IMG/VR virus record: IMGVR_UViG_3300042879_001731
Length of the DNA stretch: 64,000 bases
Source of the DNA: an uncultured virus (IMG/VR IMGVR_UViG_3300042879_001731)
Taxonomy: Duplodnaviria > Heunggongvirae > Uroviricota > Caudoviricetes
Direction: 5' to 3' (one strand)
This document shows positions 3,341 through 61,073 of this stretch, piece after piece (position 1 is the stretch's first letter; every line of letters starts with the position of its first letter). Position numbers and translations under genes: made by a program. The notes beneath the pieces are model-generated. The model had not been told where the DNA came from and searched no databases. It was given only the letters and a program-made list of their open reading frames with translations.

Positions 3341-3341
3341 A

Positions 3342-3718: not shown

Positions 3719-3735
3719 ATTTTAAATTATTTATC

Positions 3736-3924
3736 ATGTATTACAAATCAACAAACAATTACTATTTAATTAGCTGCAAAATTATTGATGATCCAGTTTC
3801 TGGAATATTAGGAATAGATGCAACATATTCAAATGGATTAATAGAACGAACTGAATATTTTAATATAGGTGAAAATATACCTACAATTCTTAATAACGAT
3901 GGCAAAAGAATTACCTTACTATAA
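3736..3924 (+). CDS. Hypothetical protein
   Basis: ORF track; ATG at 3736 after the leader. Confidence 0.5.
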   Translation: MYYKSTNNYYLISCKIIDDPVSGILGIDATYSNGLIERTEYFNIGENIPTILNNDGKRITLL

Positions 3925-4537
3925 GCACGAACCTTCTGAATGGTTAGAAGGAGAAATACAAATTTGTTCAGATGAAGCTATTGTATGTTTTATTAATTTA
4001 TGTTCAGGATATTGGTTGAAATTAGGATGCATGAGTTATGCATTTGCATTGCAAAAGTATTGCAGACGTAATGGAAATATATTGCAAGAGTTAGTTGATG
4101 CTGGTATGGTTGATTTAAATAATGAAAATATTTCAATAAAATTCCTTGACAAACAGCTTTCAGAGTTTAATAATGTTAGCGAAAAACGCAGTAAAGCTGC
4201 ACAAAAGAGATGGTCAGATGCAAATGCATTGCAAGTGCAATCCAAAAGCAATGCTATAAGAGAAGATAAGATAAGAGAAAAGAATATATTTATACCACCT
4301 ACATTTAATGATGTTTTAGAATATTGTATGCAAAGAAAAAATAATGTAGATATAAATAAATTTATAGACTTTTATGAATCTAAAGGTTGGATGATTGGTA
4401 AAAATAAAATGAAAGATTGGAAAGCATGTATTAGAACATGGGAAAAAACTTCGATAGAAGCTCCTAAACAACAAGCTAAATCTGAAGATCAAATAAGATA
4501 CGAACACGTAATGAAACAAATGGAACTGAACAAATGA
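3899..4537 (+). CDS. Phage replication initiator (lambda O/DnaT-like)
   Basis: MAKELPYYK N-terminus; C-terminal FIPPT...FIDFYESKGW...KDWKACIRTWE; directly upstream of helicase. Confidence 0.75.
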   Translation: MAKELPYYKHEPSEWLEGEIQICSDEAIVCFINLCSGYWLKLGCMSYAFALQKYCRRNGNILQELVDAGMVDLNNENISIKFLDKQLSEFNNVSEKRSKAAQKRWSDANALQVQSKSNAIREDKIREKNIFIPPTFNDVLEYCMQRKNNVDINKFIDFYESKGWMIGKNKMKDWKACIRTWEKTSIEAPKQQAKSEDQIRYEHVMKQMELNK

Positions 4538-5472
4538 TACTACAAAACGGACATAGCACACAATATCTAAACGACTATAAAAACGGGAAGATATCTCAAG
4601 GCTTGGGTATAGGATGCGTATTAGATGAATATATCAGATTTAAACGTAAACAACTCAATATCGTTTTAGGACATGATAACGTAGGTAAATCATATTGGAT
4701 GGAATGGTATTTCCTTGCGTTAGCTACTAACCATGATTTAAAAACTGTTGTTTGGATGGGTGAGAACTCAAGTGGTCAAGTAATGCGTGATTTGATACAG
4801 ATGTACTCAGGCAAACATTTTAAGGATTTAACTTACGATGAGATACGCAAACACGAATCATTTATTGAATACTATTTTAAATTCTTAAGCAATGAAAAAT
4901 TATACAAACCAAAAGAGGTTTTAGATATAATTGGTTCTACAGATGCTGATGTAGGATTTATTGACCCATTTACAGGATTAGATAGAGGTATGCAGCATTC
5001 AGATAACTATGAGTTTTTAAATACAACACGGCAATTTTGTAATCAAACTGGAAAGACTTTATATGTATCAACACATCCTAATTCAGAAAGTGGAAGAAGT
5101 GGTATGTTATACGGAGATGATTTTCCTGAATGGAAAGGACATTTAAAACCACCACTTAAAGCTCATATAGAAGGAGGAAAACCTTTCTTAAATCGTTGTG
5201 ATGATATGTTAATCATTCATAGATTAGTTAAACATCCTACAATGAAATATTCTACAATGATAGATATAGAAAAAATAAAAGACAGAGACACTGGTGGACA
5301 GTGTACTGAATTAGGTGTGCCATTACTATTTGATTTCAATAGTGGGTTAGGTTTTAAGATTGGCGGTATTGACCCTATAAAAAGACGAAATAATCCGATT
5401 AATAACGAAACACAATCTTTTTACAGGATATTAGAACAGAATGCTAACTTTGACGATCAATTACCTTTTTAA
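4534..5472 (+). CDS. DnaB/RecA-fold (SF4) replicative helicase
   Basis: Walker A GHDNVGKS, Walker B GFIDP, STHP, KIKDR. Confidence 0.8.
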   Translation: MILQNGHSTQYLNDYKNGKISQGLGIGCVLDEYIRFKRKQLNIVLGHDNVGKSYWMEWYFLALATNHDLKTVVWMGENSSGQVMRDLIQMYSGKHFKDLTYDEIRKHESFIEYYFKFLSNEKLYKPKEVLDIIGSTDADVGFIDPFTGLDRGMQHSDNYEFLNTTRQFCNQTGKTLYVSTHPNSESGRSGMLYGDDFPEWKGHLKPPLKAHIEGGKPFLNRCDDMLIIHRLVKHPTMKYSTMIDIEKIKDRDTGGQCTELGVPLLFDFNSGLGFKIGGIDPIKRRNNPINNETQSFYRILEQNANFDDQLPF

Positions 5473-5481
5473 ACACGAACT

Positions 5482-5745
5482 ATGGTAGATTACACATTAG
5501 CATTAATAAACATAGACCTAACAATAAACAAAATGTTGTTCAGGCTAAAATTAGAGGATTTAAGCGACAAAAAAAGAAAAGGAATACAAACTATCATCAA
5601 AGACTTAGAAAAGGCTTCAGAAGTCATTAAAATGCAAAATACAGAGATAGAATACCAAATACAAACTAACTCGAAATTGTATTTAGAGAATCTAAAGCTA
5701 AAAAGAATGATAGAAGAACTAACAAAAACAGGACTTGAATTATAA
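5482..5745 (+). CDS. Hypothetical coiled-coil protein
   Basis: ORF track; its TAA stop is the TAAC of hairpin site 1. Confidence 0.7.
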   Translation: MVDYTLALINIDLTINKMLFRLKLEDLSDKKRKGIQTIIKDLEKASEVIKMQNTEIEYQIQTNSKLYLENLKLKRMIEELTKTGLEL

Positions 5746-5833
5746 CGTTTTGCGTATATGTGCAGTACGCATAGATGGAACTTTAAATTAACAACAAATG
5801 CCGAAAGCGTATTGCACATATACGCTGTTAGGC
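5740..5833 (+). repeat. attC-like hairpin site A1 (long)
   Basis: ttataac, 19-bp stem 5752-5770/5807-5825, gttaggc (fits GTTRRRY). Confidence 0.85.
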
Positions 5834-5845
5834 GCAGTTAAAATT

Positions 5846-6070
5846 ATGGAAACGAAAGAAATAATAAAATTGATGTTGAAATCATCAGACCACAACCCAT
5901 ACACAGGGATGTTATCAAAGAAAGACAATTTAATCGCAGCGATTGACTTGGCTAAATTGTGTAAAGACTTTGCAGATAAAGGACAAATGGACGAAGCAAT
6001 GAACATTGAAAGTGAACAATGGGTTGTGGTCATTTCTGAACTCGAAGGTATGTCGCTTAATTGCGCCTAA
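5846..6070 (+). CDS. Cassette gene, hypothetical protein (METKEIIK..., 74 aa)
   Basis: Single ORF between sites A1 and A2; stop lies in gcctaac. Confidence 0.75.
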   Translation: METKEIIKLMLKSSDHNPYTGMLSKKDNLIAAIDLAKLCKDFADKGQMDEAMNIESEQWVVVISELEGMSLNCA

Positions 6071-6196
6071 CGTTTTGCAGATAAGCGAAGGCAAAGATTT
6101 AGAAACTAAAATTTTAACTTTAAAACAAATTTAATTATGAAAACGAGAACATCAATTTACCACAGAACCTTTGCTTTTGCTTATGTGCTGTTATAA
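6065..6196 (+). repeat. attC-like hairpin site A2 (long)
   Basis: gcctaac (fits RYYYAAC), 20-bp stem 6077-6096/6169-6188, gtta at 6190. Confidence 0.85.
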
Positions 6197-6264
6197 GCTG
6201 GCTGCGGATTATTAACTAAAAAATTAAATTGAAGCACTAAACAAAAGAATTAAAAAAAAGAGGG

Positions 6265-7038
6265 ATGGAAATAAATAAAATATACAACGAGAATTGCCTT
6301 GATACAATGGCTAAAATGCCTGATAATTTTATTGACTTAACTGTTACTTCACCGCCTTATGACAATTTGAGAACTTATAATGGCTATTGTTTTGACTTTG
6401 AAAATGTAGCTAAGGAACTTTACAGGGTGACTAAGGAACAAGGTGTTTTGGTTTGGGTAGTAGCTGATTCTGTGATAGATGGCTCTGAAAGTGGAAATAG
6501 TTTTAGGCAAGCATTGTATTTTAAGGAACAAGGATTTAACCTGCACGATACAATGATATATCAAAAAAACAGTTATCCGTTTCCGCCTACAAACAGATAT
6601 TATCAGCAATTTGAATATATGTTTGTTTTTAGCAAAGGAAAGCCTAAAACTACTAATTTACTAAAATGTGAAAGCGGTAACAAAAAGCGTAAATCTACAC
6701 AAAGGAATAAGGATGGAACGACAAGTTCATTTACATCAGAAGGTAACAAAGAAAGGATAATGGACAATGTTTGGATTGAAGATACTGGATATATGAGAAC
6801 GACAAAAGACAAATACGCATTTAAGCACCCTGCAATGTTTCCTGAAAGTTTATGTGAAAAACACATACAAACTTGGAGCAATGAGAGTGATTTGGTTTAT
6901 GATTGCTTTATGGGAAGCGGGACAACCGCTAAAATGGCAATTTTGAATAATAGAAAATATATTGGAAGTGAGATTTCAGAAGAATATTGTAAGATTATCG
7001 AAACTCGTATTAAAGAGTGCGGTGGGCTTTTTTTTTAA
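6265..7038 (+). CDS. Cassette-borne beta-class amino-DNA methyltransferase (N4-mC/N6-mA)
   Basis: TSPPY catalytic motif, HPAMFP, DCFMGSGTT SAM-binding motif. Confidence 0.93.
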   Translation: MEINKIYNENCLDTMAKMPDNFIDLTVTSPPYDNLRTYNGYCFDFENVAKELYRVTKEQGVLVWVVADSVIDGSESGNSFRQALYFKEQGFNLHDTMIYQKNSYPFPPTNRYYQQFEYMFVFSKGKPKTTNLLKCESGNKKRKSTQRNKDGTTSSFTSEGNKERIMDNVWIEDTGYMRTTKDKYAFKHPAMFPESLCEKHIQTWSNESDLVYDCFMGSGTTAKMAILNNRKYIGSEISEEYCKIIETRIKECGGLFF

Positions 7039-7086
7039 TTCTTTTGAAACGAAATTGTCAAACGAAGCAGGAACGTAGCAGCTTGC

Positions 7087-7156
7087 TTATAACACAAAAG
7101 CAGGCGCAGTATTATTGCGCTTGCTGACTGTTAGAAAGCCGTTTTAATGGCGTAAA
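7087..7156 (+). repeat. attC-like hairpin site A3 (short, putative resident site)
   Basis: taac 7090...gtta 7133; homologous to 32039-32105 including downstream cgttttaatggcgtaaa. Confidence 0.85.
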
Positions 7157-7171
7157 AATTAAACTTAGATT

Positions 7172-7696
7172 ATGAAAAAATGCCGTAACTGTCAAGAAAG
7201 ATTTAATCCTATACGTTCAACGCTTGAAAAGTATTGCCAAAAAGACGAATGTATCAGAGCAATGGTCTGCGAAACAAAAGCGAAACTCTGGAAGCAGAAT
7301 AAGAAAAAGATGAAAGAGGATATAATGACTGTTCAAGACTACATGAAAGTAGCACAGCAAACTTTTAATAAATATATCCGTCTTCGTGATCAAGGAAAGA
7401 ATTGTATTTCATGTGGCAAAATCCCAAAGAAAGAGAACGCAGGACATTTCTATTCAGCTGGAACACACACAGCAGTAAGGTTTGACGAACGAAATGTACA
7501 TTTACAATGTGAACACTGTAATTCATATTTGAGCGGAAACTTATTAATGTACAGAGACAACTTATTAATTAAGTTGGGATATGAAGAATTTGAACGTTTA
7601 ACAGTTGAAGCTATGTTAACACGAAAATACACACGAGAAGAATTAAAAGAAATAATTAACACATATAAGTTAAAAATAAAATCGTTTAAAAGTTAG
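7172..7696 (+). CDS. ninG: NinG/Rap-like HNH junction endonuclease
   Basis: FNKYIRLRD..CISCG...AGHF...RFDERNVHLQCEHCN. Confidence 0.9.
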   Translation: MKKCRNCQERFNPIRSTLEKYCQKDECIRAMVCETKAKLWKQNKKKMKEDIMTVQDYMKVAQQTFNKYIRLRDQGKNCISCGKIPKKENAGHFYSAGTHTAVRFDERNVHLQCEHCNSYLSGNLLMYRDNLLIKLGYEEFERLTVEAMLTRKYTREELKEIINTYKLKIKSFKS

Positions 7697-29439: not shown

Positions 29440-30334
29440 ATGAAAAAACAGTTAAAAGAAGCTCAAATGCTTATCCTAAGAGCAAGTCAGCTTTTAGAAA
29501 TTTGTGAAGAAGCACAAAAGAAGGTTGATTATATGTGTAGATGGAATGTAGAAACAGCAATTCCTAACGGATTTGATATTCATTCTGACGAAGACATAGA
29601 ATTCCAACAAAAAGTAGTAGAACGTATTTGGAGAAGCTACAAAATCTTAGTAACTAAAATTAATGAGACAGCACTATGAAATCAATTAATCCATTCAAGA
29701 AGGTAACAGAGGCATTTAATCAGCATATAAAGCCTACTATATTAGAAAACGAGTTCATACCTAATAACGGAGTGAAACACGGAGACTTAAAAAGGTATTG
29801 GAATAATTACAATGCTCAGTTAGTAAACAGAATTTCAGAAATAAAAAGCTATGAAAAGACACTTTGAACAAATTACAGAATTAGAAGAAGCTGAATGGAA
29901 TTTAGCATTATCAAAAAAACAATATGAAAGGTGTAAGATTGCTATTGAAACAGGAAACTGGGAAGGTTATCCTGAATCTTTAAAAGGAAGAAAACAAACA
30001 TTATCAATGCTAAAAGAAATTATTGAATTATTAGAACTTAAAATAGAAAAATTAAAATGAAAAAAATACTACATTTTTTCGGTTTAGAAACTCGTGAAGA
30101 AATTATGGAGTTTAAACAAAGAAGAGCAGCAAAACCTTTTTTAATGATGCTTAAAAGAATTACTGAATTAGAAAACAGAGTTAAACAATTAGAAGATGAA
30201 AAGCTATAAAATAACGTACAAGGTAAAAGTAAAGGAGTGGGAAACTCGCTATTTAATAGTAAGAGCCTATACAAAAGACGAAGCTAAAGAACGCTTCACA
30301 ATGTGGAAAGGATTAATAACAGATATAAACGAGA
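29440..30334 (+). other. Run of small coupled early hypothetical ORFs (29440-29679, 29676-29867, 29851-30060 and shorter ones)
   Basis: Overlapping start/stop codons. Confidence 0.65.
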
Positions 30335-30567: not shown

Positions 30568-30807
30568 ATGAAAACAGCATTACAATGGTTTATTCAACAA
30601 ATAAAATATATAAATATAATTGTACCAAAAGAAAATTCAGATAAACTTTTATCAATGATGCATCAAGCCAAAGAAATGGAGAAAAACAATATATGTGATG
30701 CTTGGGATAATGGATATGATAAAGGAACAAGAGATAGGATTGAAAAAATATCAAATCCAGTTGGCAATGCAGAACAATACTACAACGAAACCTTTAAATC
30801 AGAGTAA
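30568..30807 (+). CDS. MKTA...EQYYNETFKSE family small protein
   Basis: Spans the repeat junction; paralog of 2706-2915. Confidence 0.8.
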   Translation: MKTALQWFIQQIKYINIIVPKENSDKLLSMMHQAKEMEKNNICDAWDNGYDKGTRDRIEKISNPVGNAEQYYNETFKSE

Positions 30808-30898
30808 GATGAAAGAAGATAAATTTTTAATAAAATCATTGTTGTTAATTATAATCTCAACAATATTAGGAGGGTTAGTTTATTCGTTATTGTTTAAA
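30659..30898. repeat. Direct repeat copy 2; junction between phage A and phage B
   Basis: Matches 1-240. Confidence 0.97.
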
Positions 30899-30908
30899 TA
30901 TTCATAAA

Positions 30909-31097
30909 ATGAAAGATAAACATGCGATAATTTTAATACCTCCAATAGGAATTATGGTTAAGGAGGTCGAGATGTATATATATATGAAGACCGGACGAAA
31001 GGTAAATATAGTTTTTAACAATCCATTCCACATGCATGAACATATTGAAATGCTGAGGGATGCATATAAAATTATTAAAACAGATGAATTCAGGTGA
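30909..31097 (+). CDS. Hypothetical protein, homolog of 11820-11996
   Basis: Shared YI..KTGR.V.I.F.NP motif. Confidence 0.7.
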   Translation: MKDKHAIILIPPIGIMVKEVEMYIYMKTGRKVNIVFNNPFHMHEHIEMLRDAYKIIKTDEFR

Positions 31098-32506: not shown

Positions 32507-32521
32507 TAACCCGTTTTGCTA

Positions 32522-33364
32522 ATGTACTCTTCAGGATATATATATAAGATAACATCACCATCCAATAAAATATATATTGGACAAGCAGTTAATATATCTA
32601 GAAGAAAAAGCAGGTATAAATCTTTTGACTGTAAAGAACAAACAAAGCTATATAGATCTTTAAAAAAATATGGTTTTGAAAATCATAAGTTTGAAGTTAT
32701 AGAGGAATGTGCTTTTGACCATTTGAATATTAGAGAGAGATACTGGCAAGAATTTTATGAAACTTTAGGCATCAATGGATTAAATTGTTTTTATGTTGAG
32801 ACGAACAATCTTCCAAGAATTGTTTCTGATGAAACTAAACAAAGAATTAAACAAGGATTAGTTGGAAAAATTAAATCAGGAAAAGATCATTATGCTTTTG
32901 GTAAAAAACTTACTGATGAACAAAAAGAATTCTTATCAAGAATAAACACTGGTAAAAAGATGCCAAAAAGTGCTATAGAAAAAATGACTGGAAAGAATAA
33001 TCCTAACTATGGCAAGGCACTTCCTGAATGGCATAAGAAAAGATTATCTGAACTTCAGAAGGAAAGATTCAAGGACAAGTCTAATCATCCCTTTACAGGA
33101 AGAAATCATAAAGAAGAATCAAAACAAAAAATGTCAAACGCCAAAAAAGGCATAAAACTTAATAAAGAATGGAGAGATAAAATAGTTGAATCAATTAAAG
33201 ATAGATACTGCGAATATAAAGACAAGATAGTTCTTGACTTAAGTACAGGTATTTATTATTACAATTGTGCTGATGCTGCTAGATATAATAATATGAATAG
33301 CACAACATTATCACATATGCTCGTAGGAAGCAAAAGAAACAAAACAAATTTAATTTACGTTTAA
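32522..33364 (+). CDS. GIY-YIG homing endonuclease (NUMOD3-like repeats)
   Basis: GYIYKITSPSNKIYIGQ, RERYWQ, HKEESKQKMS. Confidence 0.9.
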   Translation: MYSSGYIYKITSPSNKIYIGQAVNISRRKSRYKSFDCKEQTKLYRSLKKYGFENHKFEVIEECAFDHLNIRERYWQEFYETLGINGLNCFYVETNNLPRIVSDETKQRIKQGLVGKIKSGKDHYAFGKKLTDEQKEFLSRINTGKKMPKSAIEKMTGKNNPNYGKALPEWHKKRLSELQKERFKDKSNHPFTGRNHKEESKQKMSNAKKGIKLNKEWRDKIVESIKDRYCEYKDKIVLDLSTGIYYYNCADAARYNNMNSTTLSHMLVGSKRNKTNLIYV

Positions 33365-37966: not shown

Positions 37967-38319
37967 AATATATAGATGGAGAAAACAAAGATGCCATATC
38001 TTTTCTCATTGATAAGATAGGTAAAAAGGAAGGATCTGATAGATTCATTCTTGCAGTAAGAGATGGGCTTAATATGTCTGGAGATAAACTAGTTTGGTGG
38101 GTTGATTTATTTAATAAGTATCATAACCACGATGATTATAGTTATGCTAATATTTTAAGAACAAGAAGGCATTTCAAAAATATTGCCTTTACTTATCTTG
38201 ATAGTGGTAATTATAAGATGTTTAATACATGGATAAGGAATTGGTCCAATATGCTTATTGTTTGTCGTCACGCATATCCAGAGAAATGGTCAGTAAAAAC
38301 CTCAGAGAATACCAAGTAG
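37957..38319 (+). CDS. Hypothetical protein
   Basis: ORF track. Confidence 0.6.
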   Translation: MYIEYIDGENKDAISFLIDKIGKKEGSDRFILAVRDGLNMSGDKLVWWVDLFNKYHNHDDYSYANILRTRRHFKNIAFTYLDSGNYKMFNTWIRNWSNMLIVCRHAYPEKWSVKTSENTK

Positions 38320-39542
38320 AGAACGCAAAGAAGGGATGCGCCATACTTAAGGAATTAGGTTTGGTGTATCTCTCTATGCAGGTTCGTTGTGGCAAAACAG
38401 CAACTTCCATGGAGGTGGCTAAGTTATACGGAGCCAAGAAGGTTCTGTTCCTCACTAAGAAGAAAGCTATCTCATCTATACAGTCAGACTATGAAGACTT
38501 CGGATATTCCGAACACTTCGAAATTATGATTGTGAATGATGAGAGCATGCACAAAATTGAAGATCCAAAATCTTTTGATTTAATTGTGCATGACGAACAT
38601 CACCGTTTTGGTGCGATACCTAAGCCTGGAATGTCTACTAAGTTATTTAGAAGTTTGTTTGCTGATAAGCCTATGATATTTCTTTCAGGGACCCCTGCAC
38701 CCGAATCTTTCAGTCAGATGTACCATCAGTTTTGGGTATCCAACAAATCACCATGGAGCAGATACGCTAATTTCTATAAATGGGCGGCAGATTATGTGAA
38801 TGTAAAGCAAAGAAAAATAAATAGCTTTATGGTGAACGACTACTCTGCAGGAATAGAGGAAAAGATAATGGGCGATATATCTAAATATATGCTTACATAT
38901 ACGCAGGAGCAGGCAGGCTTTCAATCAAAGATAGATGAAGAAGTATTGTATTGCAAAATGCTACCAAAAACGTATAAAATTGCAAATCAGTTATTGAAGG
39001 ACTTAGTGGTTGAAGGAAAAGAAGAAGTTATACTTGGCGATAAACCCGCCAAGTTGCTACAAAAGATTCATCAGTTATACAGCGGAACGATTAAGTTTGA
39101 ATCCGGTAAATCTATTGTATTAGATACAACAAAGGCTGAGTTTATTAAAGAAAGATTTGCAGGAAAAAAGCTAGGTATATTTTATGTATTCAAAGCGGAA
39201 TTGGATGCATTAAGACAGGTTTACGCGGATAATATTACTACAGATCTTGATGAATTTAATTCAACAGATAAGTCTATAGCTTTACAAATTGTATCAGGCC
39301 GTGAGGGTATATCCTTAAAAAATGCTGACTATCTTGTGTTCTATAATATACAGCACAGTGCTGTGTCGTATTTCCAGGGAATAGACCGCATGACTACCAT
39401 AGATAGACTTAACAATAAGGTCTATTGGATATTTTCAGAAGGAGGCATTGAGGAGAAAATATATAAAGTAGTAAAGAGTAAGAAGAAGTATACAGTTAAC
39501 ATATTTAAAAAAGATTACTCAATAACTTCCCAAAAGTCTTAA
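38286..39542 (+). CDS. SF2 (SNF2-like) helicase
   Basis: LREYQ, RCGKT, DEHH, SGTP, REGISL, QGIDR. Confidence 0.88.
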   Translation: MVSKNLREYQVENAKKGCAILKELGLVYLSMQVRCGKTATSMEVAKLYGAKKVLFLTKKKAISSIQSDYEDFGYSEHFEIMIVNDESMHKIEDPKSFDLIVHDEHHRFGAIPKPGMSTKLFRSLFADKPMIFLSGTPAPESFSQMYHQFWVSNKSPWSRYANFYKWAADYVNVKQRKINSFMVNDYSAGIEEKIMGDISKYMLTYTQEQAGFQSKIDEEVLYCKMLPKTYKIANQLLKDLVVEGKEEVILGDKPAKLLQKIHQLYSGTIKFESGKSIVLDTTKAEFIKERFAGKKLGIFYVFKAELDALRQVYADNITTDLDEFNSTDKSIALQIVSGREGISLKNADYLVFYNIQHSAVSYFQGIDRMTTIDRLNNKVYWIFSEGGIEEKIYKVVKSKKKYTVNIFKKDYSITSQKS

Positions 39543-39607
39543 ATATTTATACATTTGGTATAGTAATAATCAGCCAAAAGTTTTAAAAAATTGAAGTTTT
39601 GGCCGTT

Positions 39608-39738
39608 TATATAACGGCTGACGCTATACGAAGGTGGGGATTAAAAGTACTGAACCCTGACTTACCACAAAAGTAAATTAGAAGTACTAATGTACAAATT
39701 TGGCACACAGCCCCACTTTTGTATAGCGTATGTTATAG
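39608..39738 (+). repeat. attC-like hairpin site B1 (long)
   Basis: taac 39612, 19-bp stem 39621-39639/39711-39729, gtta 39732. Confidence 0.85.
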
Positions 39739-39757
39739 GCTGTAAAATTTACGGATT

Positions 39758-40015
39758 ATGAAACAAGAATATCCAAAGAAAGAAAAAGTTTATGTAGTTG
39801 CAACACACCATTACTGTTTTAGAGTAGGTGAGCCATCTGAAATAATTGGCGTTAAAATGGGGCAACCTGACGAGAAATCAAAGCCAAGATTGGTTTATGA
39901 AGTAGAATATTCAGATGGCGTTAGAGATGAAATATGTGTATCTGAAATAGGAATGAATTATCAACTACTGACTTTTGCTGATGTTAAAAGTGGAAGGTTT
40001 AATACGGAGCAGTAA
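39758..40015 (+). CDS. Cassette gene, hypothetical protein (85 aa)
   Basis: Single ORF between sites B1 and B2. Confidence 0.8.
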   Translation: MKQEYPKKEKVYVVATHHYCFRVGEPSEIIGVKMGQPDEKSKPRLVYEVEYSDGVRDEICVSEIGMNYQLLTFADVKSGRFNTEQ

Positions 40016-40033
40016 GGTAGTAAATTTTATTGC

Positions 40034-40161
40034 CTATAACGGTGAATTATTGGAGCAGTTGCCCATCAAAATATTGACAAACTTAAATTGAAACACAAAT
40101 GATAAAAAAACCACAGAACCCCGATACGAAGGAGGCAATTGCTTCCAATAATATGTTAGCT
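40034..40161 (+). repeat. attC-like hairpin site B2 (long)
   Basis: taac 40037, stem 40046-40063/40134-40152 with bulged T, gtta 40155. Confidence 0.85.
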
Positions 40162-40206
40162 TTTGGTTTTTGGCGAAACCTCAAATGCTATTTAGAACTG
40201 CCATTT

Positions 40207-40413
40207 ATGAGTAAGTGGAGAAGGAGAGAAAAAATTACACACATACCGATATGCTTAGGGCTTACCGTTTCGTGGAGTGATTACGACTTTGAATTGTGTG
40301 ATATGGAAGAATACTTTCCGAGAGGCAGAAAAGACGGTAAGCATAGATTGACTATATCGTGTGGAATTTTTTATTGGTGGATACGACTAACTTTCTATTC
40401 GCCAAAAACTTGA
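40207..40413 (+). CDS. Cassette gene, hypothetical protein (start may be 40099, inside the site loop)
   Basis: Single ORF between sites B2 and B3. Confidence 0.6.
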   Translation: MSKWRRREKITHIPICLGLTVSWSDYDFELCDMEEYFPRGRKDGKHRLTISCGIFYWWIRLTFYSPKT

Positions 40414-40466
40414 AGCTAACAGTCGCATAGGCATCCGCTTTAGTGGTGCTTATGCTTTGTTATGTG
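40414..40466 (+). repeat. attC-like hairpin site B3 (short, putative resident site)
   Basis: taac 40417, gcataggcatccgct/agtggtgcttatgc, gtta 40459. Confidence 0.8.
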
Positions 40467-40537
40467 TCCAGTTTTTTGAGTAAAAAACATGACATTAAAT
40501 CGGTAAATATCCGAGTATTAATTAATAATTTAGCAAG

Positions 40538-40855
40538 ATGAGCGGAGGAAAATGGGAATATATTCAGTATAGACTGAATGACATTGTTGACGATATAAAG
40601 TCAGAGATAGAAAAAAGTGGTCGTGAGAAGACGGTCAAAGAGATTAAAGAAGAATATTGGTATGATCCTGAATGGTATGAAAAATATCCTGAAGATAAGT
40701 TTCACTACAAGTATCCAGATGAAGTCATTGAAGAGTTCAAGAAGGCCATAGAGATAATAGGAAAGGCAGAAACGTATATACATCGTATAGACTGGCTGTT
40801 ATGTGGTGACGATGGAGATGAAACATTTATTAAAAGATTAAAAGAAGAATTATGA
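40538..40855 (+). CDS. Conserved phage hypothetical protein
   Basis: MSGGKWEY...RIDWLLCGDDG. Confidence 0.75.
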   Translation: MSGGKWEYIQYRLNDIVDDIKSEIEKSGREKTVKEIKEEYWYDPEWYEKYPEDKFHYKYPDEVIEEFKKAIEIIGKAETYIHRIDWLLCGDDGDETFIKRLKEEL

Positions 40856-41226
40856 GGCAGTTAGTATATAATGCAGTAAAATGTCTTGAATGTGGAGAGA
40901 GTATAGTTAGTTACCATCGACACGATTATAAGACATGTGGATGCCCAAACAGCGCTATGGTAGACGGTGGAACAGCATACGGTAGATATGGAGCTAAAGA
41001 CATGAATAAGATTGAAAAGATAGATGTCTATGACGATGACGACTTTGAGTTAGTAAGGAAGTATGCCACAAGAGGTAGCCGAGGTCCAAATGGAGATCAG
41101 CCTTTATCGTGGATTGCGATATGCGATATGGATGATGATTACCTTCAGGCTGTATTAGATTATGGGGGCCCTGAGTGGCACTTAAATATTATCAAAAAAG
41201 AAATTGAATATAGGAGCAAAGTTTAA
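40852..41226 (+). CDS. Zn-binding hypothetical protein
   Basis: CLECG..SYHRHDYKTCGC...VDGG. Confidence 0.75.
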   Translation: MRQLVYNAVKCLECGESIVSYHRHDYKTCGCPNSAMVDGGTAYGRYGAKDMNKIEKIDVYDDDDFELVRKYATRGSRGPNGDQPLSWIAICDMDDDYLQAVLDYGGPEWHLNIIKKEIEYRSKV

Positions 41227-41243
41227 TTTTTAAATGTAATTTT

Positions 41244-41591
41244 ATGGAATGCAAAGAATGTTTTGGAAGTGGGCAATATGAGATAGGCCCAGAGTGCGAT
41301 AAGCCAGCAAGCATGTGTTGTGGCGGATGCTATAAGAAAGTTAAATGTGAAAAATGCAATGGAACTGGAATTATTAAGATGAATACACCAATAGATGAAA
41401 TTTACAGAATGTGGCACAGTAAAGATCAAAGAGAATTTGATAGATGGTTTGCTGTGAACAAAAATACATTGAATAAAAATTTGATGGAAATGATGGAAAA
41501 AGCATATTATGCCGGATTCAATGAAGAACTTCCTTTCGCTAGTTTTGAAGATTATATAAATGGAATCGAAAATACAGGCGAAACTGATTAA
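41244..41591 (+). CDS. DnaJ-type CxxCxGxG zinc-finger protein
   Basis: CKECFGSG, CEKCNGTG. Confidence 0.65.
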   Translation: MECKECFGSGQYEIGPECDKPASMCCGGCYKKVKCEKCNGTGIIKMNTPIDEIYRMWHSKDQREFDRWFAVNKNTLNKNLMEMMEKAYYAGFNEELPFASFEDYINGIENTGETD

Positions 41592-42641: not shown

Positions 42642-43797
42642 AAACGTAAAGAAAAGAATCGAGGAGCTTTATAATGACGGCATACAATCAAAGTCAGAAA
42701 TAGCCAGAAGGTTAAAATCAGAGTTTCCAGAACTATCATTTGACGCAATAAGATTTAAAGCGTCAAGATACATAAAGAGGATAAGTAACGTTGCTTTTTA
42801 CGAAGAATGCGAGAAGATAGGTATAGACCCTAATACTGTTAATCACTACTGGTATAAAGGAAAGCATTATTCTATAAATGTTAAAGGGGATTTAGACAAT
42901 TCATTAGGTATAGACTTTGAAAAAGTTATATCTGACTGCATGAGTAATTATAGTCCAGTTAGTAAAATTAAACATTCGGAAGATTATGAAATGTTTGATA
43001 GATTAATATGGACAGATGTGCATGTTGGTATGGATGCCAGTAGAAACTCATTAGCATTGTATCCATCTGAATGGAATGCAGATGTTTTATTCAGGAGAAT
43101 TCATGAAATGGCAGATTTTGTTTTAAACAATAAGACTGGAAGTATACTTATAATTGATGAGTTAGGAGATTTTATGGACGGATGGGATGGCGAGACAACA
43201 AGAAAAGGCCATAAACTACCACAAAATATGACTAATGAAGAAGCTTTCGACACAGCTTTAAAGGCTAAAATTCTTCTTGTAAGTTTATTAGCTAGTAGTT
43301 ATGACTACATATATTGCAACAATATATGTGAAGATAATCACGCTGGATCATTTGGATATATTGTTAATTCAGCATTTAAAAATGTTGTTGATTGTAAGTT
43401 TAATAATGTAGAGGTTAAAAATCATCAGAGATTTATAAATCATTATATATTTGGAGTGCATGCATTTATAATAACTCATGGAAAAGATTCTCGTAATTTG
43501 AAATTTGGATTTAAACCTGTTTTGGATCCTAGAACTTCTGAAAAAATATCTCAATATATAAGACATAATTCTGAGCTAAGATCAATAGACAATATTGAAT
43601 TTAGCAAAGGTGATTCACATCAATGTCTTTTTGATATGTGCACATCTGATGAATTTGATTATTTTAATTATCCAGCATTTAGCCCATCATCTGAATGGGT
43701 TCAAACAAATTTCAAGAAAGGAAAGTCTGGATTTGTAATGCAAAATATATCTAAAAATACATCTCAAAAAATTACAAAAACATATTTCTTTAATTAA
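42634..43797 (+). CDS. Calcineurin-like metallophosphoesterase with N-terminal HTH
   Basis: TDVHVG, LGDFMDG, DNH, THG, GDSH. Confidence 0.75.
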   Translation: MSKNVKKRIEELYNDGIQSKSEIARRLKSEFPELSFDAIRFKASRYIKRISNVAFYEECEKIGIDPNTVNHYWYKGKHYSINVKGDLDNSLGIDFEKVISDCMSNYSPVSKIKHSEDYEMFDRLIWTDVHVGMDASRNSLALYPSEWNADVLFRRIHEMADFVLNNKTGSILIIDELGDFMDGWDGETTRKGHKLPQNMTNEEAFDTALKAKILLVSLLASSYDYIYCNNICEDNHAGSFGYIVNSAFKNVVDCKFNNVEVKNHQRFINHYIFGVHAFIITHGKDSRNLKFGFKPVLDPRTSEKISQYIRHNSELRSIDNIEFSKGDSHQCLFDMCTSDEFDYFNYPAFSPSSEWVQTNFKKGKSGFVMQNISKNTSQKITKTYFFN

Positions 43798-44507
43798 TGA
43801 TTTATAAATGTGTTATATATAAAATAACTTCACCTTCTAATAAAATATATATTGGTCAGAGTAAAAATGTAAATAAGAGATTTAAGCAATATCAAAAAAT
43901 GAATTGTAAAACTCAAAAAGTATTACTTAATTCATTAAATAAATACGGAGCAGATAATCATATATTTGAAGTCATAGAAGAATGTGCTTTTGAAGATTTA
44001 AATATTAGAGAGAGATATTGGCAGGAATATTATAATTCATTAGCTCCAAATGGATTAAATTCCATGCTTACAGAGTCTAAAGATTCTCCTAGAGTTGTAT
44101 CAAAATCAACTTCAATTAAATTATCTGAATCCAAAATAGGAAATAAAAACCCTATGTATGGAAAGAAAAAGACTGATGCTCAAAAAGAATATTTATCATT
44201 AAAATTTAAAGGAAGAGTGTTTACAGATGAATGGAAAAGAAAAATACAGGAATCTAAAATTAAATCTGGCAAGCATAAACATGGAAAGCCAATGTCAGAA
44301 GAAACAAAACAAATGTTAAAACTTGCTCTAATAGAAAAATTTTCTGGATTTAATAATACAAGATCAAGGATAGTTCTTGATGTAGAAACTGGAATATTTT
44401 ATTATAACGTTAATGACGTTTCATTGTATAATAACATACATAAAGAAACATTAAGAGCTATGCTTAAAGGTAGAATTAAAAACAAAACTAAATTTATATT
44501 TGCATAA
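43797..44507 (+). CDS. GIY-YIG homing endonuclease, paralog of 32522
   Basis: IYKITSPSNKIYIGQ, FEVIEECAF..LNIRERYWQE. Confidence 0.9.
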   Translation: MIYKCVIYKITSPSNKIYIGQSKNVNKRFKQYQKMNCKTQKVLLNSLNKYGADNHIFEVIEECAFEDLNIRERYWQEYYNSLAPNGLNSMLTESKDSPRVVSKSTSIKLSESKIGNKNPMYGKKKTDAQKEYLSLKFKGRVFTDEWKRKIQESKIKSGKHKHGKPMSEETKQMLKLALIEKFSGFNNTRSRIVLDVETGIFYYNVNDVSLYNNIHKETLRAMLKGRIKNKTKFIFA

Positions 44508-54434: not shown

Positions 54435-55202
54435 CTATGTTGGGAAACTTAAGAACGAATTTGTATTAATATGGAACAATCCAACATAGTTGATATTATG
54501 ATTGGTAAGAGTTGCTTGCATATAATATCCTCTTGGTCCATAAGATTCTGCCGTACTATCCTTAGCAAATACTATTATATCACCAGGAACTAATGCCGTT
54601 GCTGATGCAGATGTTAACGTTATGCTTGTTGGAGTATGTGATGCCACCTGTCCTGCATATACCAATCCCCCTGTATATATTTTATATATCTTGTCCCACT
54701 GACTTATAGATGTTCCAATGTTAAAGTCAAATTCGATAGTAAATGCAATCGCGTCATATGATGTCAATTGACCCACTCCTTGTGTAGATGTAGCCTTTAG
54801 ATCTATGGTGTTGTTATCGCGTCTAATATGCGCAAACCAATGACCTTCTTTTGGCACAAACCAACTTTTATCAATCATACCTGTATTTAAATCTGTCTCT
54901 ACATCTACATCCCAAGTATCTGTGCTATACATGGATATAGTCTTAAATACTTTCGGAGAAAAAGGATCGTCATTAAAAATAGTTGTCATAGTAGATGGAT
55001 AATTAACACCATCACCATCTTGATCCGGAACATCCTCTAAATAAAATTGATTTCGTATAGGGTTTTCGTTATGCTTGTATAGACTTCCATTTCTCCAAGT
55101 ATAAAAATTGTTATTCATTCCGGTCATCCAATCTGGTATATAAGACCAAAATGATGTCCATGAATCAGTAGAAGTAGAAAATGTTAATGTCTGTTCAGCC
55201 AT
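54435..55202 (-). CDS. Tail stabilisation/nozzle protein, C-terminal part
   Basis: TLTFS...WTSFWSYIP..M, KEGHWFA, RGYYM. Confidence 0.6.
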   Translation of the reverse strand: MAEQTLTFSTSTDSWTSFWSYIPDWMTGMNNNFYTWRNGSLYKHNENPIRNQFYLEDVPDQDGDGVNYPSTMTTIFNDDPFSPKVFKTISMYSTDTWDVDVETDLNTGMIDKSWFVPKEGHWFAHIRRDNNTIDLKATSTQGVGQLTSYDAIAFTIEFDFNIGTSISQWDKIYKIYTGGLVYAGQVASHTPTSITLTSASATALVPGDIIVFAKDSTAESYGPRGYYMQATLTNHNINYVGLFHINTNSFLSFPT

Positions 55203-56981: not shown

Positions 56982-59900
56982 TTATCCTTTTTGGAATGAT
57001 TCATTACCTGAATGAGAAACACCCATAACTATCACTTTTCCTAATCTTCCTCTAGCTTGCGTCAATATAAACTCTGCTTTCAAACCATCACAATAAGTAA
57101 CTTCAAATTTAACAGTTCTATTTAAACCTGTGTTGTTTAAAGAAACAGTGGCATTTATATCTTTTGATCCTGATCCTTCACTTGGGTAATCTGTAACCCA
57201 CTCAGTACCATATCCTGTATCAACTAAAGATAATTCCCATTCGATATCTGTATTTATGCTAAACATGTAATATCCAAGTGGTCCATTTTTTGGAACAGAG
57301 AACTTCTCTCTATTTATTGTCAATATACATGGAAGAACTCTCTGTTCGTTTGTAGACAATACATACATATTGTCATACGGATCATATGCTCCTATTTTCT
57401 GAGTAGTAGGATTGTCTTTCATCAAATCTCTAAAATAATCATTCAATCCATATGAAGATATTTCATCAATCTGATTCTCACTAAGTCTAAGCACAACGCC
57501 CCTTCTTGCATCAGTAAAAAACAATTGAGTTCCATATTTTGCAAATGACTCTGGGTTTTTACTTATGCCCCATTCTCCTGACATTGGTATTTGAGTTCCA
57601 AGCACTTCTGGTATTGTTACTATTTGACCGCCTCCTATAGAGTCAAACATTACATTTTTACCGTATAAAACATTTGATATTTTATTCTCTTGAAACACTA
57701 ATAAGTCTGTGTCTCTAGCGTATAATTTTTGAATTGAACCAAAATCTCTATCTAAATATTTAAAGTTTGAAAGAGATAAATTAAATTCATTTAGTCTATT
57801 CAGTGCAGTATTATATTGATAAACGCCACTATAGCAAATAGACGCTTCGTTTCTTATTTGTTTATAATTTTCTATTGGAACTTGAACTCTTACACTAAAT
57901 CCTTTTGTTGTTTGATTAAAGTCATCGTATATTCTATCTGATTCCAATCCATTCCCCCATGACCATCCATTATTATCAGTATTAAATGACATAGGTTTGT
58001 TTATTTCTATTTTTGCAGGTGTTGTTGCGTCATCTTGATCTTGTTCTTCTGTATTAAAAAACGAAACAGTACCAGGAGTCTCTGGCCCAGATCCTGGCCA
58101 TGGAGCATCTATAACTATAGTATATAAGTCAGGAACTTGAGTTACAGTCCAAGTATCATTAAGACCTGGTATTTCAGTTACAACATTTACTTTATCGCCT
58201 ACATTAAAATAATGAGGAACAGTTTTATCAAATTGAACAAGTTTGGTATATTCACCATCTGCAAACTGAAAATCATTGTAATGCCAAAGTACTATATGTT
58301 TCCCATCTACTATTGGATAAGTTTGAAACAATTCGTGATATATGTCTGAATCGTCTTCAATTGCAGATGTTTCACAAATATTTAAATTTTGCTGTTGTGT
58401 AATCTTGAAATTAACAACAAGCTTATTTTGTTTGTTATTATCTTGACCTGGACCACTATAAAAGGAAGCTGCTGTAGATCCATCATTTCCTGGGTTTGCA
58501 GGTACATCTGAGAATATAAACATTCTTACTGGCCACTCAGAATTGCTCAAATTATCTATATCTCCTATTATGTTATTTGAATTAAATGTTGTGTTAACAC
58601 CTGGAACTAATTGCCAATTTTTACCTCTTCTGAATACAACTCTTGATCCTTTTTTATTTTGTCCGTCTGTTCCTATATAATTAAATAAATTTCTCGCTCC
58701 AGATTCATACCACCACTCTTCTATATTATCATAATCTTGAGGAGACGGTGGAAATGGAATTTCTGGTTGCGTAAATCCTCCTGGATTATATGTATCCTCT
58801 ACAACTTGAATTCTTATTAGTGCACCTGTCAATATTTTTTTATCATTTGGAGGAGCATCATTCAACCATGTACTTGGTATTACTGCTGCACAATTGTTTT
58901 TTAAAATATAACTAGGAACTATAGCATTACTACTTACATGACCTAATTGACTTACTATATCATTAAAAGAAGCTCTACAATTAAAAATCCATCTATCACC
59001 AACATTATATGTAGATTGATTGAATATCACATTAAAATAATATGCAATATTTGTTGACACTCCTTCAGATATAGGTATATCAGATTCAATAAGTACATTA
59101 TTATTTTGAAGAGTATATTTGTTTATTGAATTTTTATATACAGAGTAAGTTGTAGGGCTATCTATTTGTATGGTTATCCTAGTATCTTCATTATCATCAT
59201 TATAATATTTTGCATATGATAATCCAAGAGTATTTGGAAGAGATATTCCATTTGAGTTTCCACTTCCATAAAATATTGGTCTTTCAACCCAACTTTCAGT
59301 AGGATAATTGCCTGGTGTTTGATATAATGTAAATGGAGACATTGGAATTATTGGAAGTGACGACAAAGGAGTCACCGCGCCTCCACCAATTCCAGTGGAT
59401 GAAGACGAATCTACATTAGATCCTGATAGTTCATTAGGAGTGTCTATTTTTATTTTAAAGTATAATCCAGCAATAGCATTAGATACAAAACCCTCAGGTT
59501 TTACTTCTATTTCTAATATCTTGTATTTTTTATTTGAATATGTAGGCCCTGAAGATATAGATTTAAAAATTACATATTCTCCAACTTGTATTTTACTTGC
59601 ATCCGATTCATTTATTAAAAAATATTTAAATAAATTATCAGTATATGAAATTATTGGAAATACATTATAATATGATTTTTTGCTTTGTTTTACATATACC
59701 CTATAATGTGTAGCCCAACAAGGTGGATTATTTTTTATGCTTAATACAATAGTATTTGATTTATCTGAATATAATGAAGGTATATATGTTGTATTACCAG
59801 TTAAATTACTAGGATATAATGGAGGAGCCGTAAGGACAGTTGACATTCTACCATATTTATCAAGATAAACTAATCCAATCTCGTAATCTCTATCTGATCT

Positions 59901-61073
59901 CCATGTAGATTTTGGATTTTCCTCATCAGAACTGCTCTGCTTTAATGTTAATGTATAATTTATATTTATATCATTGCCAAAGCAATCTACTATGTTTCTG
60001 AATTGAACATAATTACCATATGCTAATCTATTTCCTACTATATCTTGTGATTTAGCAAGCAAAGGGACATTGTCATATAGCCTAGTCACTTGATCATTTG
60101 GAAGTGCCGCATATACCTTGTTGTTGTTGAATGAAATAGTATATGACGAATCGTCCGGTATCTGAAGTTCAGATTTTGATATTGTATCTATAATACTAGT
60201 ATTTATATTTTTTGTGTCCTTTACAAATACTTGTATTTCTTTTACAAATTCATTTCCAGTCTCAATGGTTAATTTAACTGAATTGTAAAAGTTAGTCATT
60301 GACTTATTGTTTCCTACTCCGTAATCATAATTATATGACTTCGGCATAAATGCAACAGCCGAAAATGGAGACATTGAACTATATTGATCGTCAACATACT
60401 TATATCTATATGAAAAATATAGAAATTTCTCTGATATATTATTTGTGTTGTATACACTTAAATCATTATATAAATAAATACTTGGAGCAAACAAAGGCGG
60501 CTCTAGTACAACATCTATATCTTTATCTATTCTAGGGTCATCTATTTGATATCCTGAAGTTCCAGTGGGGTCAGATTTTACTCTAGTAATATTTATTCTT
60601 CTTGGAGGATTATAATTATCAGTCCAATATAAATAGTTGTTCTCATCATTTCCTCTTATGAAATTAACTCCTGTAATAGGAAATTCTTTTCTAAAATTAA
60701 GTTTTGACGGAGTCTCTTGGTTCAATTTGTTTGATTGTAAAACTCTTACAGCAATACCTGTAGGTTCATCATATTCATATATGCCATCAAATAAATCTCC
60801 AGCTACAAACCAATATATTTTACTGAATGCTTCATATTCAACACACCCAATAGTCTTTGCTGTATCTTCGTCTAATTGCTCAAATCCAGCTAAAGTACCA
60901 ATATCAACAACACGAGAGTTGCCCATTTTATTTTTAGCAACACCAGCATCTTCTCCCTTGCTTACGTTTACATCTATATTTAAAGCATCGCGATATTGAT
61001 TCTTTGGCATTAACCTCTCATCGAGGTCTTTATTCATTGAACCACTAATAAACGTATTATTAAATTCCGGCAT
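56982..61073 (-). CDS. Tail stabilisation/nozzle protein (P22 gp10/crAss muzzle-like), N-terminal part
   Basis: MNKDLDERL...YRDALNI, WTDNYNPPRRINI, GSIQKL, GISKNPESF, FTDARRG; C-terminal BACON-like domain. Confidence 0.75.
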   Translation of the reverse strand: MPEFNNTFISGSMNKDLDERLMPKNQYRDALNIDVNVSKGEDAGVAKNKMGNSRVVDIGTLAGFEQLDEDTAKTIGCVEYEAFSKIYWFVAGDLFDGIYEYDEPTGIAVRVLQSNKLNQETPSKLNFRKEFPITGVNFIRGNDENNYLYWTDNYNPPRRINITRVKSDPTGTSGYQIDDPRIDKDIDVVLEPPLFAPSIYLYNDLSVYNTNNISEKFLYFSYRYKYVDDQYSSMSPFSAVAFMPKSYNYDYGVGNNKSMTNFYNSVKLTIETGNEFVKEIQVFVKDTKNINTSIIDTISKSELQIPDDSSYTISFNNNKVYAALPNDQVTRLYDNVPLLAKSQDIVGNRLAYGNYVQFRNIVDCFGNDININYTLTLKQSSSDEENPKSTWRSDRDYEIGLVYLDKYGRMSTVLTAPPLYPSNLTGNTTYIPSLYSDKSNTIVLSIKNNPPCWATHYRVYVKQSKKSYYNVFPIISYTDNLFKYFLINESDASKIQVGEYVIFKSISSGPTYSNKKYKILEIEVKPEGFVSNAIAGLYFKIKIDTPNELSGSNVDSSSSTGIGGGAVTPLSSLPIIPMSPFTLYQTPGNYPTESWVERPIFYGSGNSNGISLPNTLGLSYAKYYNDDNEDTRITIQIDSPTTYSVYKNSINKYTLQNNNVLIESDIPISEGVSTNIAYYFNVIFNQSTYNVGDRWIFNCRASFNDIVSQLGHVSSNAIVPSYILKNNCAAVIPSTWLNDAPPNDKKILTGALIRIQVVEDTYNPGGFTQPEIPFPPSPQDYDNIEEWWYESGARNLFNYIGTDGQNKKGSRVVFRRGKNWQLVPGVNTTFNSNNIIGDIDNLSNSEWPVRMFIFSDVPANPGNDGSTAASFYSGPGQDNNKQNKLVVNFKITQQQNLNICETSAIEDDSDIYHELFQTYPIVDGKHIVLWHYNDFQFADGEYTKLVQFDKTVPHYFNVGDKVNVVTEIPGLNDTWTVTQVPDLYTIVIDAPWPGSGPETPGTVSFFNTEEQDQDDATTPAKIEINKPMSFNTDNNGWSWGNGLESDRIYDDFNQTTKGFSVRVQVPIENYKQIRNEASICYSGVYQYNTALNRLNEFNLSLSNFKYLDRDFGSIQKLYARDTDLLVFQENKISNVLYGKNVMFDSIGGGQIVTIPEVLGTQIPMSGEWGISKNPESFAKYGTQLFFTDARRGVVLRLSENQIDEISSYGLNDYFRDLMKDNPTTQKIGAYDPYDNMYVLSTNEQRVLPCILTINREKFSVPKNGPLGYYMFSINTDIEWELSLVDTGYGTEWVTDYPSEGSGSKDINATVSLNNTGLNRTVKFEVTYCDGLKAEFILTQARGRLGKVIVMGVSHSGNESFQKG

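Follow-up and report, generated by a model that had tools for sequence, protein, structure and literature searches.

This analysis concerns a short stretch of the uncultured-virus record IMGVR_UViG_3300042879_001731 from IMG/VR (64,000 nucleotides, the whole of which we call the window), in which two small genes alternate with three hairpin-forming sites at positions 39612-40462, and we consider it probable that this stretch is a two-cassette, recombinase-less array of an integron-like, structure-defined cassette system of Bacteroidota phages. The array is called recombinase-less because the window encodes no such recombinase. The window consists of two phage genomes joined at 31339/31340: its first part, phage A, is identical (100%) over positions 1-31339 to another IMG/VR record (G001; 32,142 bp, 100% complete by CheckV), where the match stops, and the remainder is a second phage, phage B, which carries the array between the stop codon of its SNF2-like helicase gene (38229-39542) and the next conserved block. 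The two arrays, the lone site and the backbone elements next to the phage B array lie on the + strand, and coordinates are those of the window unless another sequence is named.

The array runs in the order site B1, cassette 1, site B2, cassette 2, site B3, which is the succession of long site, gene, long site, gene and short site that had been described in a first-pass annotation made from the sequence alone, and every feature was found again at its position. Each site consists of TAAC, 4-5 nt, a hairpin, 1-3 nt and GTTA, and outside these cores the three share no common sequence. B1, a long site of what we term class I (39612-39735, 124 nt), is made up of TAAC, ggctg, a 19-bp stem that includes two G.T pairs (39621-39639/39711-39729), a 71-nt loop, at and GTTA; B2 (40037-40158, 122 nt) of TAAC, ggtga, a stem with one bulged T and one G.T pair (40046-40063/40134-40152), a 70-nt loop containing ACCACAGAACC, at and GTTA; and the short site B3, which closes the array (40417-40462, 46 nt), of TAAC, agtc, a stem with one bulged T (40425-40438/40445-40455), ttt and GTTA. 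Folding of the sites as single-stranded DNA on both strands confirmed the single bulged base seen earlier in B2 and in B3, and in every case the + strand was the more stable, at -25.5 kcal/mol (z -5.2) versus -22.0 for B1, -11.7 versus -10.2 for B2 and -8.5 versus -6.6 for B3. The two ends of each cassette also pair with one another, as had been noted at first reading: when the inverted repeats were recomputed, those of cassette 1 (39732-40040) paired at 19/21 positions (39732-39752/40020-40040, 90%) and those of cassette 2 (40155-40420) at 20/23 (40155-40177/40398-40420), or at 21/24 (88%) when the 24-nt repeat is taken at its fullest (40154-40177/40398-40421), with a G.T pair at position 11 in both. 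Cassette 1 carries the gene c1 (39758-40015, 85 amino acids [aa]), and cassette 2 carries c2 (40153-40413), for which homolog alignment gives a best model of 86 aa.

An array of the same build stands in phage A (5743-7133), where three sites (A1, 5743-5830; A2, 6068-6193; A3, 7090-7133) enclose two cassettes, one with a 74-aa open reading frame (ORF; cassette 5827-6071) and one with an N6_N4 DNA methylase gene (6190-7093). A lone short site in phage B (32039-32083) is homologous to A3, with 82% identity over ~75 nt that include ~30 nt downstream with CGTTTTAATGGCGTAAA, and all seven sites of the window, three of A, three of B and the lone one, share the form TAAC-N4-5-hairpin-N1-4-GTTA. A strict scan of the window for TAAC, hairpin and GTTA returned exactly these seven on the + strand, compared with a mean of ~2 on both strands together in 30 shuffles of the window. 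Pairing between the ends of GTTA...TAAC segments reached a score of at least 12 four times in the window; 100 Markov simulations averaged 0.87, with three of them also giving four, and none produced a score of at least 17. Cassettes 1 and 2 of phage B score 17.8 and 19.1. The word ACCACAGAACC, which the first-pass annotation had pointed out as common to the A2 and B2 loops, is exact and occurs only twice in the window, at 6159 (A2) and 40110 (B2), and an unrelated viral contig of 256 kb has a third site with a near copy, ACCACAGACC, at the corresponding place in its loop. The further statement that the stems of the two phages are unrelated holds in part: A2 and B1 share a CGAAGG/CTTTTG stem core, and the lone site is homologous to A3.

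What is conserved in sites and cassette ends is structure rather than sequence. We searched IMG/VR for a 15-nt word from the B1 stem and obtained 60 loci, of which a pattern for the 3' arm marked 22 as B1-like; two further loci, L207 and L260, missed this pattern by at least one base, and L260, which folds as a B1-type site, was kept, and L207 has no paired site. The remaining loci are chance matches in coding sequence. Among the B1-like sites tested for downstream sequence, 17 of 18 precede a cassette with near and far ends that pair with each other, and a GTTA...TAAC pairing scan of all fetched loci found 46 cassettes at a score of at least 13 compared with 3 in reversed-sequence controls. 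When these were collapsed to 36 distinct cassettes and oriented by their longest ORF, positions 1-15 of the ends were Watson-Crick paired in 27-36 of the 36, position 11 was G.T in 33, and past position 15 pairs were seen in 13-16 of 36; GTTA and GTT are conserved, and the six bases that separate them vary between cassettes and covary. The earlier remark that the end complementarity is longer than the 7-bp integron R box therefore generalizes to a 15-bp stem with an almost invariant G.T pair at position 11.

The class-I sites tell the same story. We aligned 45 of them, after 46 distinct sites had been found, exact duplicates had been removed and L281 (Litorimonas) had been dropped as a chance match without cores. 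In this alignment 95.9% of the cells are paired compared with 83.5% in shuffles (0/500 reach it), double-sided changes number 125 against 38 expected, and slid controls pair at 41-53%; the search pattern imposed the inner 11 pairs but left the outer 7-8 free, and it is in the latter that the covariation is seen. B1 is a member of this covarying family, in which two conserved G.T pairs keep to the same DNA strand in 41/45 and 44/45 sites. Another class comprises short sites with a conserved CGTTTTAATG loop, in which ~7 different stems occur among ~20 instances. A 15-nt AT-rich loop word, also searched for in viral contigs, gave nearly all chance matches, and among the matches listed only L093 and L200 extend past the word.

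The locus is hypervariable. We retrieved relatives via the helicase (80 IMG/VR loci, 46-90% identity), and tblastn matched cargo 1, cargo 2 and the following 105-aa ORF in 0/80 of them, and the spacing from helicase to VRR-NUC nuclease gene ranges from overlap to ~2.8 kb. The closest relative (L004, 90% helicase identity) has no site and no cassette; a TCCAGT-hairpin block lies directly 3' of its helicase, and the same block stands after B3 in the window. This conserved backbone block (40463-40537; a degenerate TCCAGT hairpin, then AAATCGGTAAATATCCGAGTAT..., ahead of the next gene) also stands after a short site in L007 and L011, the former with one different gene and the short site at this locus, the latter with another gene, a long site, a 163-nt cassette and the short site, and L043 has four sites and three cassettes. 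Short sites homologous to B3, with compensatory stem changes, occupy the same backbone position in L005, L007, L008, L010 and L011. On the other side of the array, the small hairpin GCCAAAAG.../...TTTTGGC (39566-39610; inverted repeat of 17 nt, 82%), between the helicase stop and B1, is phage backbone and no part of any cassette; a homologous stretch is found 3' of the array in L011, so that the points of insertion on the backbone differ. An invariant locus across relatives had been named beforehand as the outcome that would tell against a cassette system, and with cargo in none of the 80, variable spacing and a closest relative that lacks the array, the locus is not of that kind.

A second such outcome, that homologs of the cargo would lack the flanking sites, did not come about either. 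c1 has one close relative in IMG/VR (95% aa identity), in the 49-kb viral contig L084, which is otherwise unrelated: compared with the whole 64-kb window, it matches over 311 bp at 91.6% nucleotide identity (39740-40050, from the left end to just past TAAC), and its sole further match is 70 nt at 74% between the loop of an L084 site and the B1 loop. In L084 cassette 1 is bounded by GTTA...TAAC and lies between such sites within an array of the same build, the arms of B2 are homologous, with compensatory changes, to the site after c1, and a further cassette with 10/10 paired ends follows. Contigs of public lake-water and other metagenome runs (X1, X2, X3, X9) likewise show homology breaking off at the TAAC/GTTA borders, namely at 39612 (X1, X9), 40040/40042 (X2, X9) and 40465 (X2), and contigs of X1 and X2 also lose it at 39741; stretches left uncovered by runs X2, X3 and X9 are not counted as absence. 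One X3 contig keeps both flanks and has 547 other letters in place of 39580-40464, with homology back at 40465. X1 is possibly the source sample, and contigs are unable to show rare forms.

The class-I pattern extends to bacterial chromosomes, with 26 matches in a genome collection; one, L281 (Litorimonas), we judge to be due to chance, and the others are mostly in Bacteroidota, including isolates of Pedobacter and Lacihabitans. The chromosomal cargo is of the types familiar from integron cassettes (PhnB-like, DinB_2, GrpB, AHSA1, glyoxalase, PIN, methyltransferases), and the arrays seen are short, with 1-3 cassettes per 8-kb locus. When 40 kb around the Lacihabitans locus were scanned for strict sites, a single strong one emerged, and the matches were fewer than in the reversed-sequence control; such a scan gives no array lengths for chromosomes because their sites often end in GTTG and escape it. 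One chromosomal class-I variant (L266-L289, core at ~4001-4093 of each; stem GGGCTTGG...) is near-identical in Pedobacter, Lacihabitans, Chitinophaga-like, Cytophagales and Flavobacteriales genomes, and its loop holds two direct repeats of ~30 nt. Gene orientation differs between the two settings: in 35/46 chromosomal flanks the genes are on the strand that does not fold, in agreement with the rule known from integrons, where the folding strand is the one without the genes, whereas in 34/37 viral flanks they are on the folding strand. Because the G.T pairs keep to their DNA strand while gene orientation flips between chromosomes and phages, the constraint appears to act on the DNA rather than on the mRNA. 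These comparisons support the idea of a structure-recognized system common to both phages of the window, and they place it in further phages and in Bacteroidota chromosomes.

A tyrosine recombinase is encoded within 4 kb of the site at three chromosomal loci (L274, L280, L286), at one of which, L286, it is divergent from the row of genes. These linked recombinases score 172-198 bits against the integron-integrase model (cut-off, 265) and align with it in two pieces, skipping model positions ~182-238, the region of the IntI-specific insertion; the closest solved relatives are an archaeal XerC/XerA-like enzyme, aligned in one stretch, and IntI4, aligned in two. Among array-bearing viral records, 3/30 have a recombinase or a remnant within ~5 kb of a class-I site. 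In the viral contig L232 (35-1400; with L304), a segment bounded by GTTA...TAAC (score 13.3) contains a Xer-like recombinase gene, which is two units away from a class-I site and points the same way as the cassette genes, as though the enzyme were a cassette cargo too.

From these patterns we infer that recombination occurs, and with it an enzyme, a single-stranded substrate and a position of the cut. In this model the + strand, as single-stranded DNA, would fold at each site so that TAAC pairs with GTTA around the hairpin, a layout like the one that the bottom strand of an integron attC site takes on when folded. A stretch of 15-24 nt after GTTA would pair with one of equal length before the next TAAC, and because its two ends pair, an excised circular cassette would rebuild one long hairpin, with a 15-bp outer stem and its G.T pair at position 11, an asymmetric internal loop and an inner hairpin. 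A Xer/IntI-like tyrosine recombinase would then recognize the fold, and the exchange at the TAAC/GTTA core would involve a single strand; if integrons are a guide, the folded strand would be cut after AA and before C, with the product resolved by replication. As neither phage of the window encodes a recombinase, we propose that it acts in trans and comes from the host or from another phage infecting the same cell. The outcome would be the insertion, deletion and swapping of single-gene cassettes in the early-gene region. As the cargo genes lie on the folding strand, the phage sites are transcribed too and can supply start codons, as at c2.

Several observations weigh against this model. No tyrosine or serine recombinase or transposase is present among the 67 window ORFs scanned, and tblastn of the window found none; a recombinase is absent from 27/30 array-bearing viral records, including all 4 that are at least 90% complete, and of the 26 chromosomal loci only 3 have one within 4 kb, one of them IS91-linked. 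In 19/19 sequences, three phage stem types are linked to the 10 nt that come next, with a variable preceding flank, but cassette 1 shares with L084 the following and not the preceding site, so that the two findings disagree on which side of a site travels with a cassette. The loops hold conserved sequence (the class-I loop, CGTTTTAATG and ACCACAGAACC), and integron attC loops need none. No recombination event, circle or empty junction was seen in the metagenome contigs, which cannot show rare forms. The phage sites lie on the sense strand, and their transcripts have G.U pairs, which makes a role in RNA possible. Finally, the sole member of the site family known to have been tested at the bench, P12002L_attC1 of Polaribacter phage P12002L, is the one of six phage sites for which recombinants with IntI1 were not verified (Qi et al. 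2023; PMC9892861).

We further entertain, at somewhat less than even odds, the broader view that this is a second, independent kind of integron of Bacteroidota and their phages, with a Xer-like recombinase lacking the IntI insertion and folded single-stranded sites with a 15-bp stem and a G.T pair, and in which the arrays of lytic phages have no recombinase and their cassettes run in the opposite orientation to those on chromosomes; by that inversion the recombination site would also be the leader, and sometimes the start codon, of the gene it carries. If this is true, phages and hosts would draw on cassette pools and exchange them whenever a partner with a recombinase is at hand. The capture of single genes is the textbook role of integrons, which are thought to depend on a specialized integrase. 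The system proposed here would differ from them in three ways: its stem is longer and differently marked, its enzyme would be of a simpler, Xer-like kind, and it resides mainly in the lytic phages of an aquatic phylum that is abundant. Its confirmation would mean that cassette capture evolved or diversified beyond IntI. It would also explain part of the single-gene mosaicism of phage early regions and define a pool of mobile phage accessory genes (methylases and many small unknown proteins) to mine for anti-defence functions.

The main rival explanation places the role of these structures in RNA: the hairpins and gene-flanking stems would act in the early phage transcript, in RNA processing, stability or control of translation, and gene movement would need no dedicated recombinase, ordinary or illegitimate recombination being enough. 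We regard this as improbable as a full account, and an RNA-level role may coexist with the DNA role in phages. It draws on the sense-strand position of the phage sites between co-directional genes (34/37 flanks), on non-Watson-Crick pairs that are G.U on that strand, on the scarcity of recombinases at the arrays and on start codons in or at the sites, since the ATG of c2 overlaps GTTA and ORFs start in the site loops of L011 and L015. The chromosomal family, however, is antisense to its genes (35/46 flanks), and mRNAs there would have C.A mismatches at the conserved G.T positions; the invariant TAAC/GTTA cores, the breaks of homology at them and the linkage to tyrosine recombinases where present are left unexplained. 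Neither do the transcript signals fit, with no terminator-like site in 39400-40700 and 5 promoter-like matches versus 5.5 in shuffles, and Rfam 15 has no match at the gathering score in the whole window, with chance-level ones only (E 0.3-3) in 39500-40600 and 5650-7250. Known ribozymes and riboswitches were rejected, as Rfam has no matches to them.

That these are ordinary integron cassettes with true attC sites, a cluster of attC sites lacking an integron integrase (CALIN) captured from host integrons and mobilized back into them by host IntI, strikes us as quite unlikely, and membership in canonical integrons is not supported. The TAAC...GTTA cores, the hairpin, the bulged bases and the cassette logic do fit attC, the chromosomal locus L286 has the divergent layout of recombinase and array, and HattCI called one family member an attC in phage P12002L (PMC9892861). 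The linked recombinases nevertheless fall short of the integron-integrase cut-off and skip the IntI insertion region, and none of the five site-bearing genomes searched has an integron-integrase match above the cut-off; the bases after GTT in B1, B2 and B3 (ATAG, AGCT and ATGT) do not fit RRRY, the outer stem has 15 bp rather than 7, and the phage genes lie on the folding strand. P12002L_attC1 yielded no verified IntI1 recombinants and was missed by the attC covariance model (PMC9892861).

There is very little to suggest that the cassettes are hairpin-dependent transposons of the miniature inverted-repeat (MITE) or IS200/IS605 type whose ends are recognized by a transposase: each gene does lie within terminal inverted repeats that start with GTTA and end with TAAC, with a conserved GTT about one helical turn inside, but the six inner end bases vary and covary, which argues for pairing rather than a shared protein-binding sequence, no transposase of the HUH or DDE families is found among the 67 window ORFs, no target-site duplications were seen, and the cassettes always adjoin a hairpin site and are never scattered. 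REP/RAYT elements fit no better, given the same varying ends and the lack of a linked enzyme of that kind. Mobility by homing endonucleases, for which the two GIY-YIG genes of phage B might be held responsible, was rejected, as neither gene is at the array and arrays also occur in phages of other build. The junction-resolving nucleases near arrays (NinG in phage A, VRR-NUC in relatives of phage B) were set aside as mobilizers, their neighborhood being the early/replication module.

Neither cargo gene of the cassette array in phage B has a Pfam or PHROG family. c1 has 9 unnamed homologs at 66-93% identity, and in a protein atlas it falls only into viral hypothetical clusters, all below 0.9; c2 also falls only into viral hypothetical clusters there and has 2 homologs in a large protein collection and no relative in IMG/VR. 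The ATG of c2 (40153-40155) combines the site spacer at with the first base of GTTA, and the stop codon falls within the right end, so that c2 fills its cassette. In the alignment with its two homologs, conservation runs from ML(A/T)(F/L)GFWR onward and not upstream; alternative starts are at 40099, in the B2 loop, and at 40207.

Besides the helicase, phage B encodes a primase, a VRR-NUC nuclease, two GIY-YIG endonucleases and crAss-type muzzle proteins, the domains of which are matched at 54435-55202 and 56982-61073, and because its proteins match these domains we take it to be a crAss-like podovirus of a freshwater Bacteroidota host. The closest named phages to both A and B infect Flavobacteriia, at low identity (29-45%), and a distant blastn search of 38200-41300 against GenBank phages gave one weak helicase match and nothing else. 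The GIY-YIG/NUMOD3 homing endonuclease genes are free-standing (32516-33364 and 43797-44507), and the first of them sits just 3' of the lone site; phage A has an HNH/NUMOD4 endonuclease gene at 1539-2036 and a ~255-bp repeat, terminal-repeat-like, at 6-260 and 30664-30918 (95% identity). A 110-aa ORF of phage B (34631-34963) has a weak match, below the cut-off, to the Acb2/Tad1 hairpin domain of anti-defence sponges (E 0.001, 19.7 versus 27 bits). Directly after the array, the 105-aa ORF (40538-40855) has no TAAC/GTTA sites; it appears to be another insertion, as it is absent from the 80 relatives and L004 and L011 go from the promoter-like block straight to a DUF7695 gene. In four of the relatives (L071, L072, L074 and L075, ~2700-5050 of each), the helicase matches in two pieces ~0.8-1 kb apart, which suggests an insertion in the helicase gene (an intron, an intein or an endonuclease gene).

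Among known systems, the phage CALINs reported by Qi et al. (2023, Front Microbiol; PMC9892861) come close to the array; these authors describe integrase-less attC clusters in virulent phages, including Polaribacter phage P12002L. By our comparison P12002L_attC1 (NC_028924 30008-30056), which according to that source was predicted by HattCI only (PMC9892861), belongs, with its CGTTTTAATG loop, to the short sites of the present family, and the active attC2 of the same phage is a different sequence. P12002L (NC_028924, L303) has two family sites (30008-30056 and 38879-38936) beside DNA methyltransferase genes and upstream of a NinG gene, which is the neighborhood of the methylase cassette of phage A (6190-7093; NinG at 7172-7696). 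In the literature we covered, with subscription journals outside its scope, neither the 15-bp stem nor the site classes nor the Xer-like partner is described, and only PMC9892861 was directly relevant. As to the CALIN definition, which asks for at least two attC sites and no integron integrase close by, three sites stand within 850 bp and no integrase is in the window, and membership hinges on accepting the sites as attC.

Like integrons and CALINs, the array has single-gene cassettes in a row, hairpins closed by ...AAC/GTT... cores, structure conserved over sequence and bulged stem bases, with one ORF and one site per cassette and complementary ends (15-24 nt here, not 7) from which a circle would rebuild the site. 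attC sites are ~57-141 nt long, with one core of the form RYYYAAC; in the window, TAAC/GTTA cores close all seven sites, and B1 and B2 (124 and 122 nt) are within this length range and B3 (46 nt) is below it. The other core form is given as G|TTRRRY, and phage CALINs resemble our arrays in their DNA methylase cargo (phage A and P12002L here) and in having no integrase nearby (PMC9892861). What sets the present system apart from integrons is the outer stem of 15 bp with its fixed G.T pair at position 11 instead of a 7-bp R box, the asymmetric spacers (4-5 nt versus 1-3 nt), the conserved loop sequences and the position of the phage genes on the folding strand (34/37 flanks), whereas the chromosomal variant follows the integron rule (35/46 opposite). 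A complete integron would also have IntI, which is not at the array, and the recombinases linked elsewhere lack the IntI insertion and score below the cut-off. An 'integron-like' subgroup of tyrosine recombinases is described by Smyshlyaev et al. (2021; PMC8138268).

Three more distant systems share single traits with the array. A ~125-nt site kept at high identity across many cassettes recalls the Vibrio repeats. Those are attC families of sedentary chromosomal integrons, typical of one species, whereas the conserved site here crosses the classes of a phylum and enters phages, and the arrays are short. Single accessory genes with stem-loop flanks in hyperplastic early regions that vary between close relatives are also the mark of moron cassettes and of the PeSL (promoter early stem-loop) cassettes of T4-type phages, in which similar direct repeats of promoter and stem-loop recombine by homology; in the present arrays neighboring sites differ in sequence and share only the 4-nt cores and the fold, each cassette has inverted ends of its own, and promoter-like matches are at chance level (5 versus 5.5 in shuffles). 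In integration of the CTX-phi type, Xer recombination acts on folded single-stranded phage DNA, and the simple Xer-like tyrosine recombinase that we propose would likewise act on a hairpin of one strand, but here there is no dif-like site, and what would move is a cassette rather than a whole phage genome.

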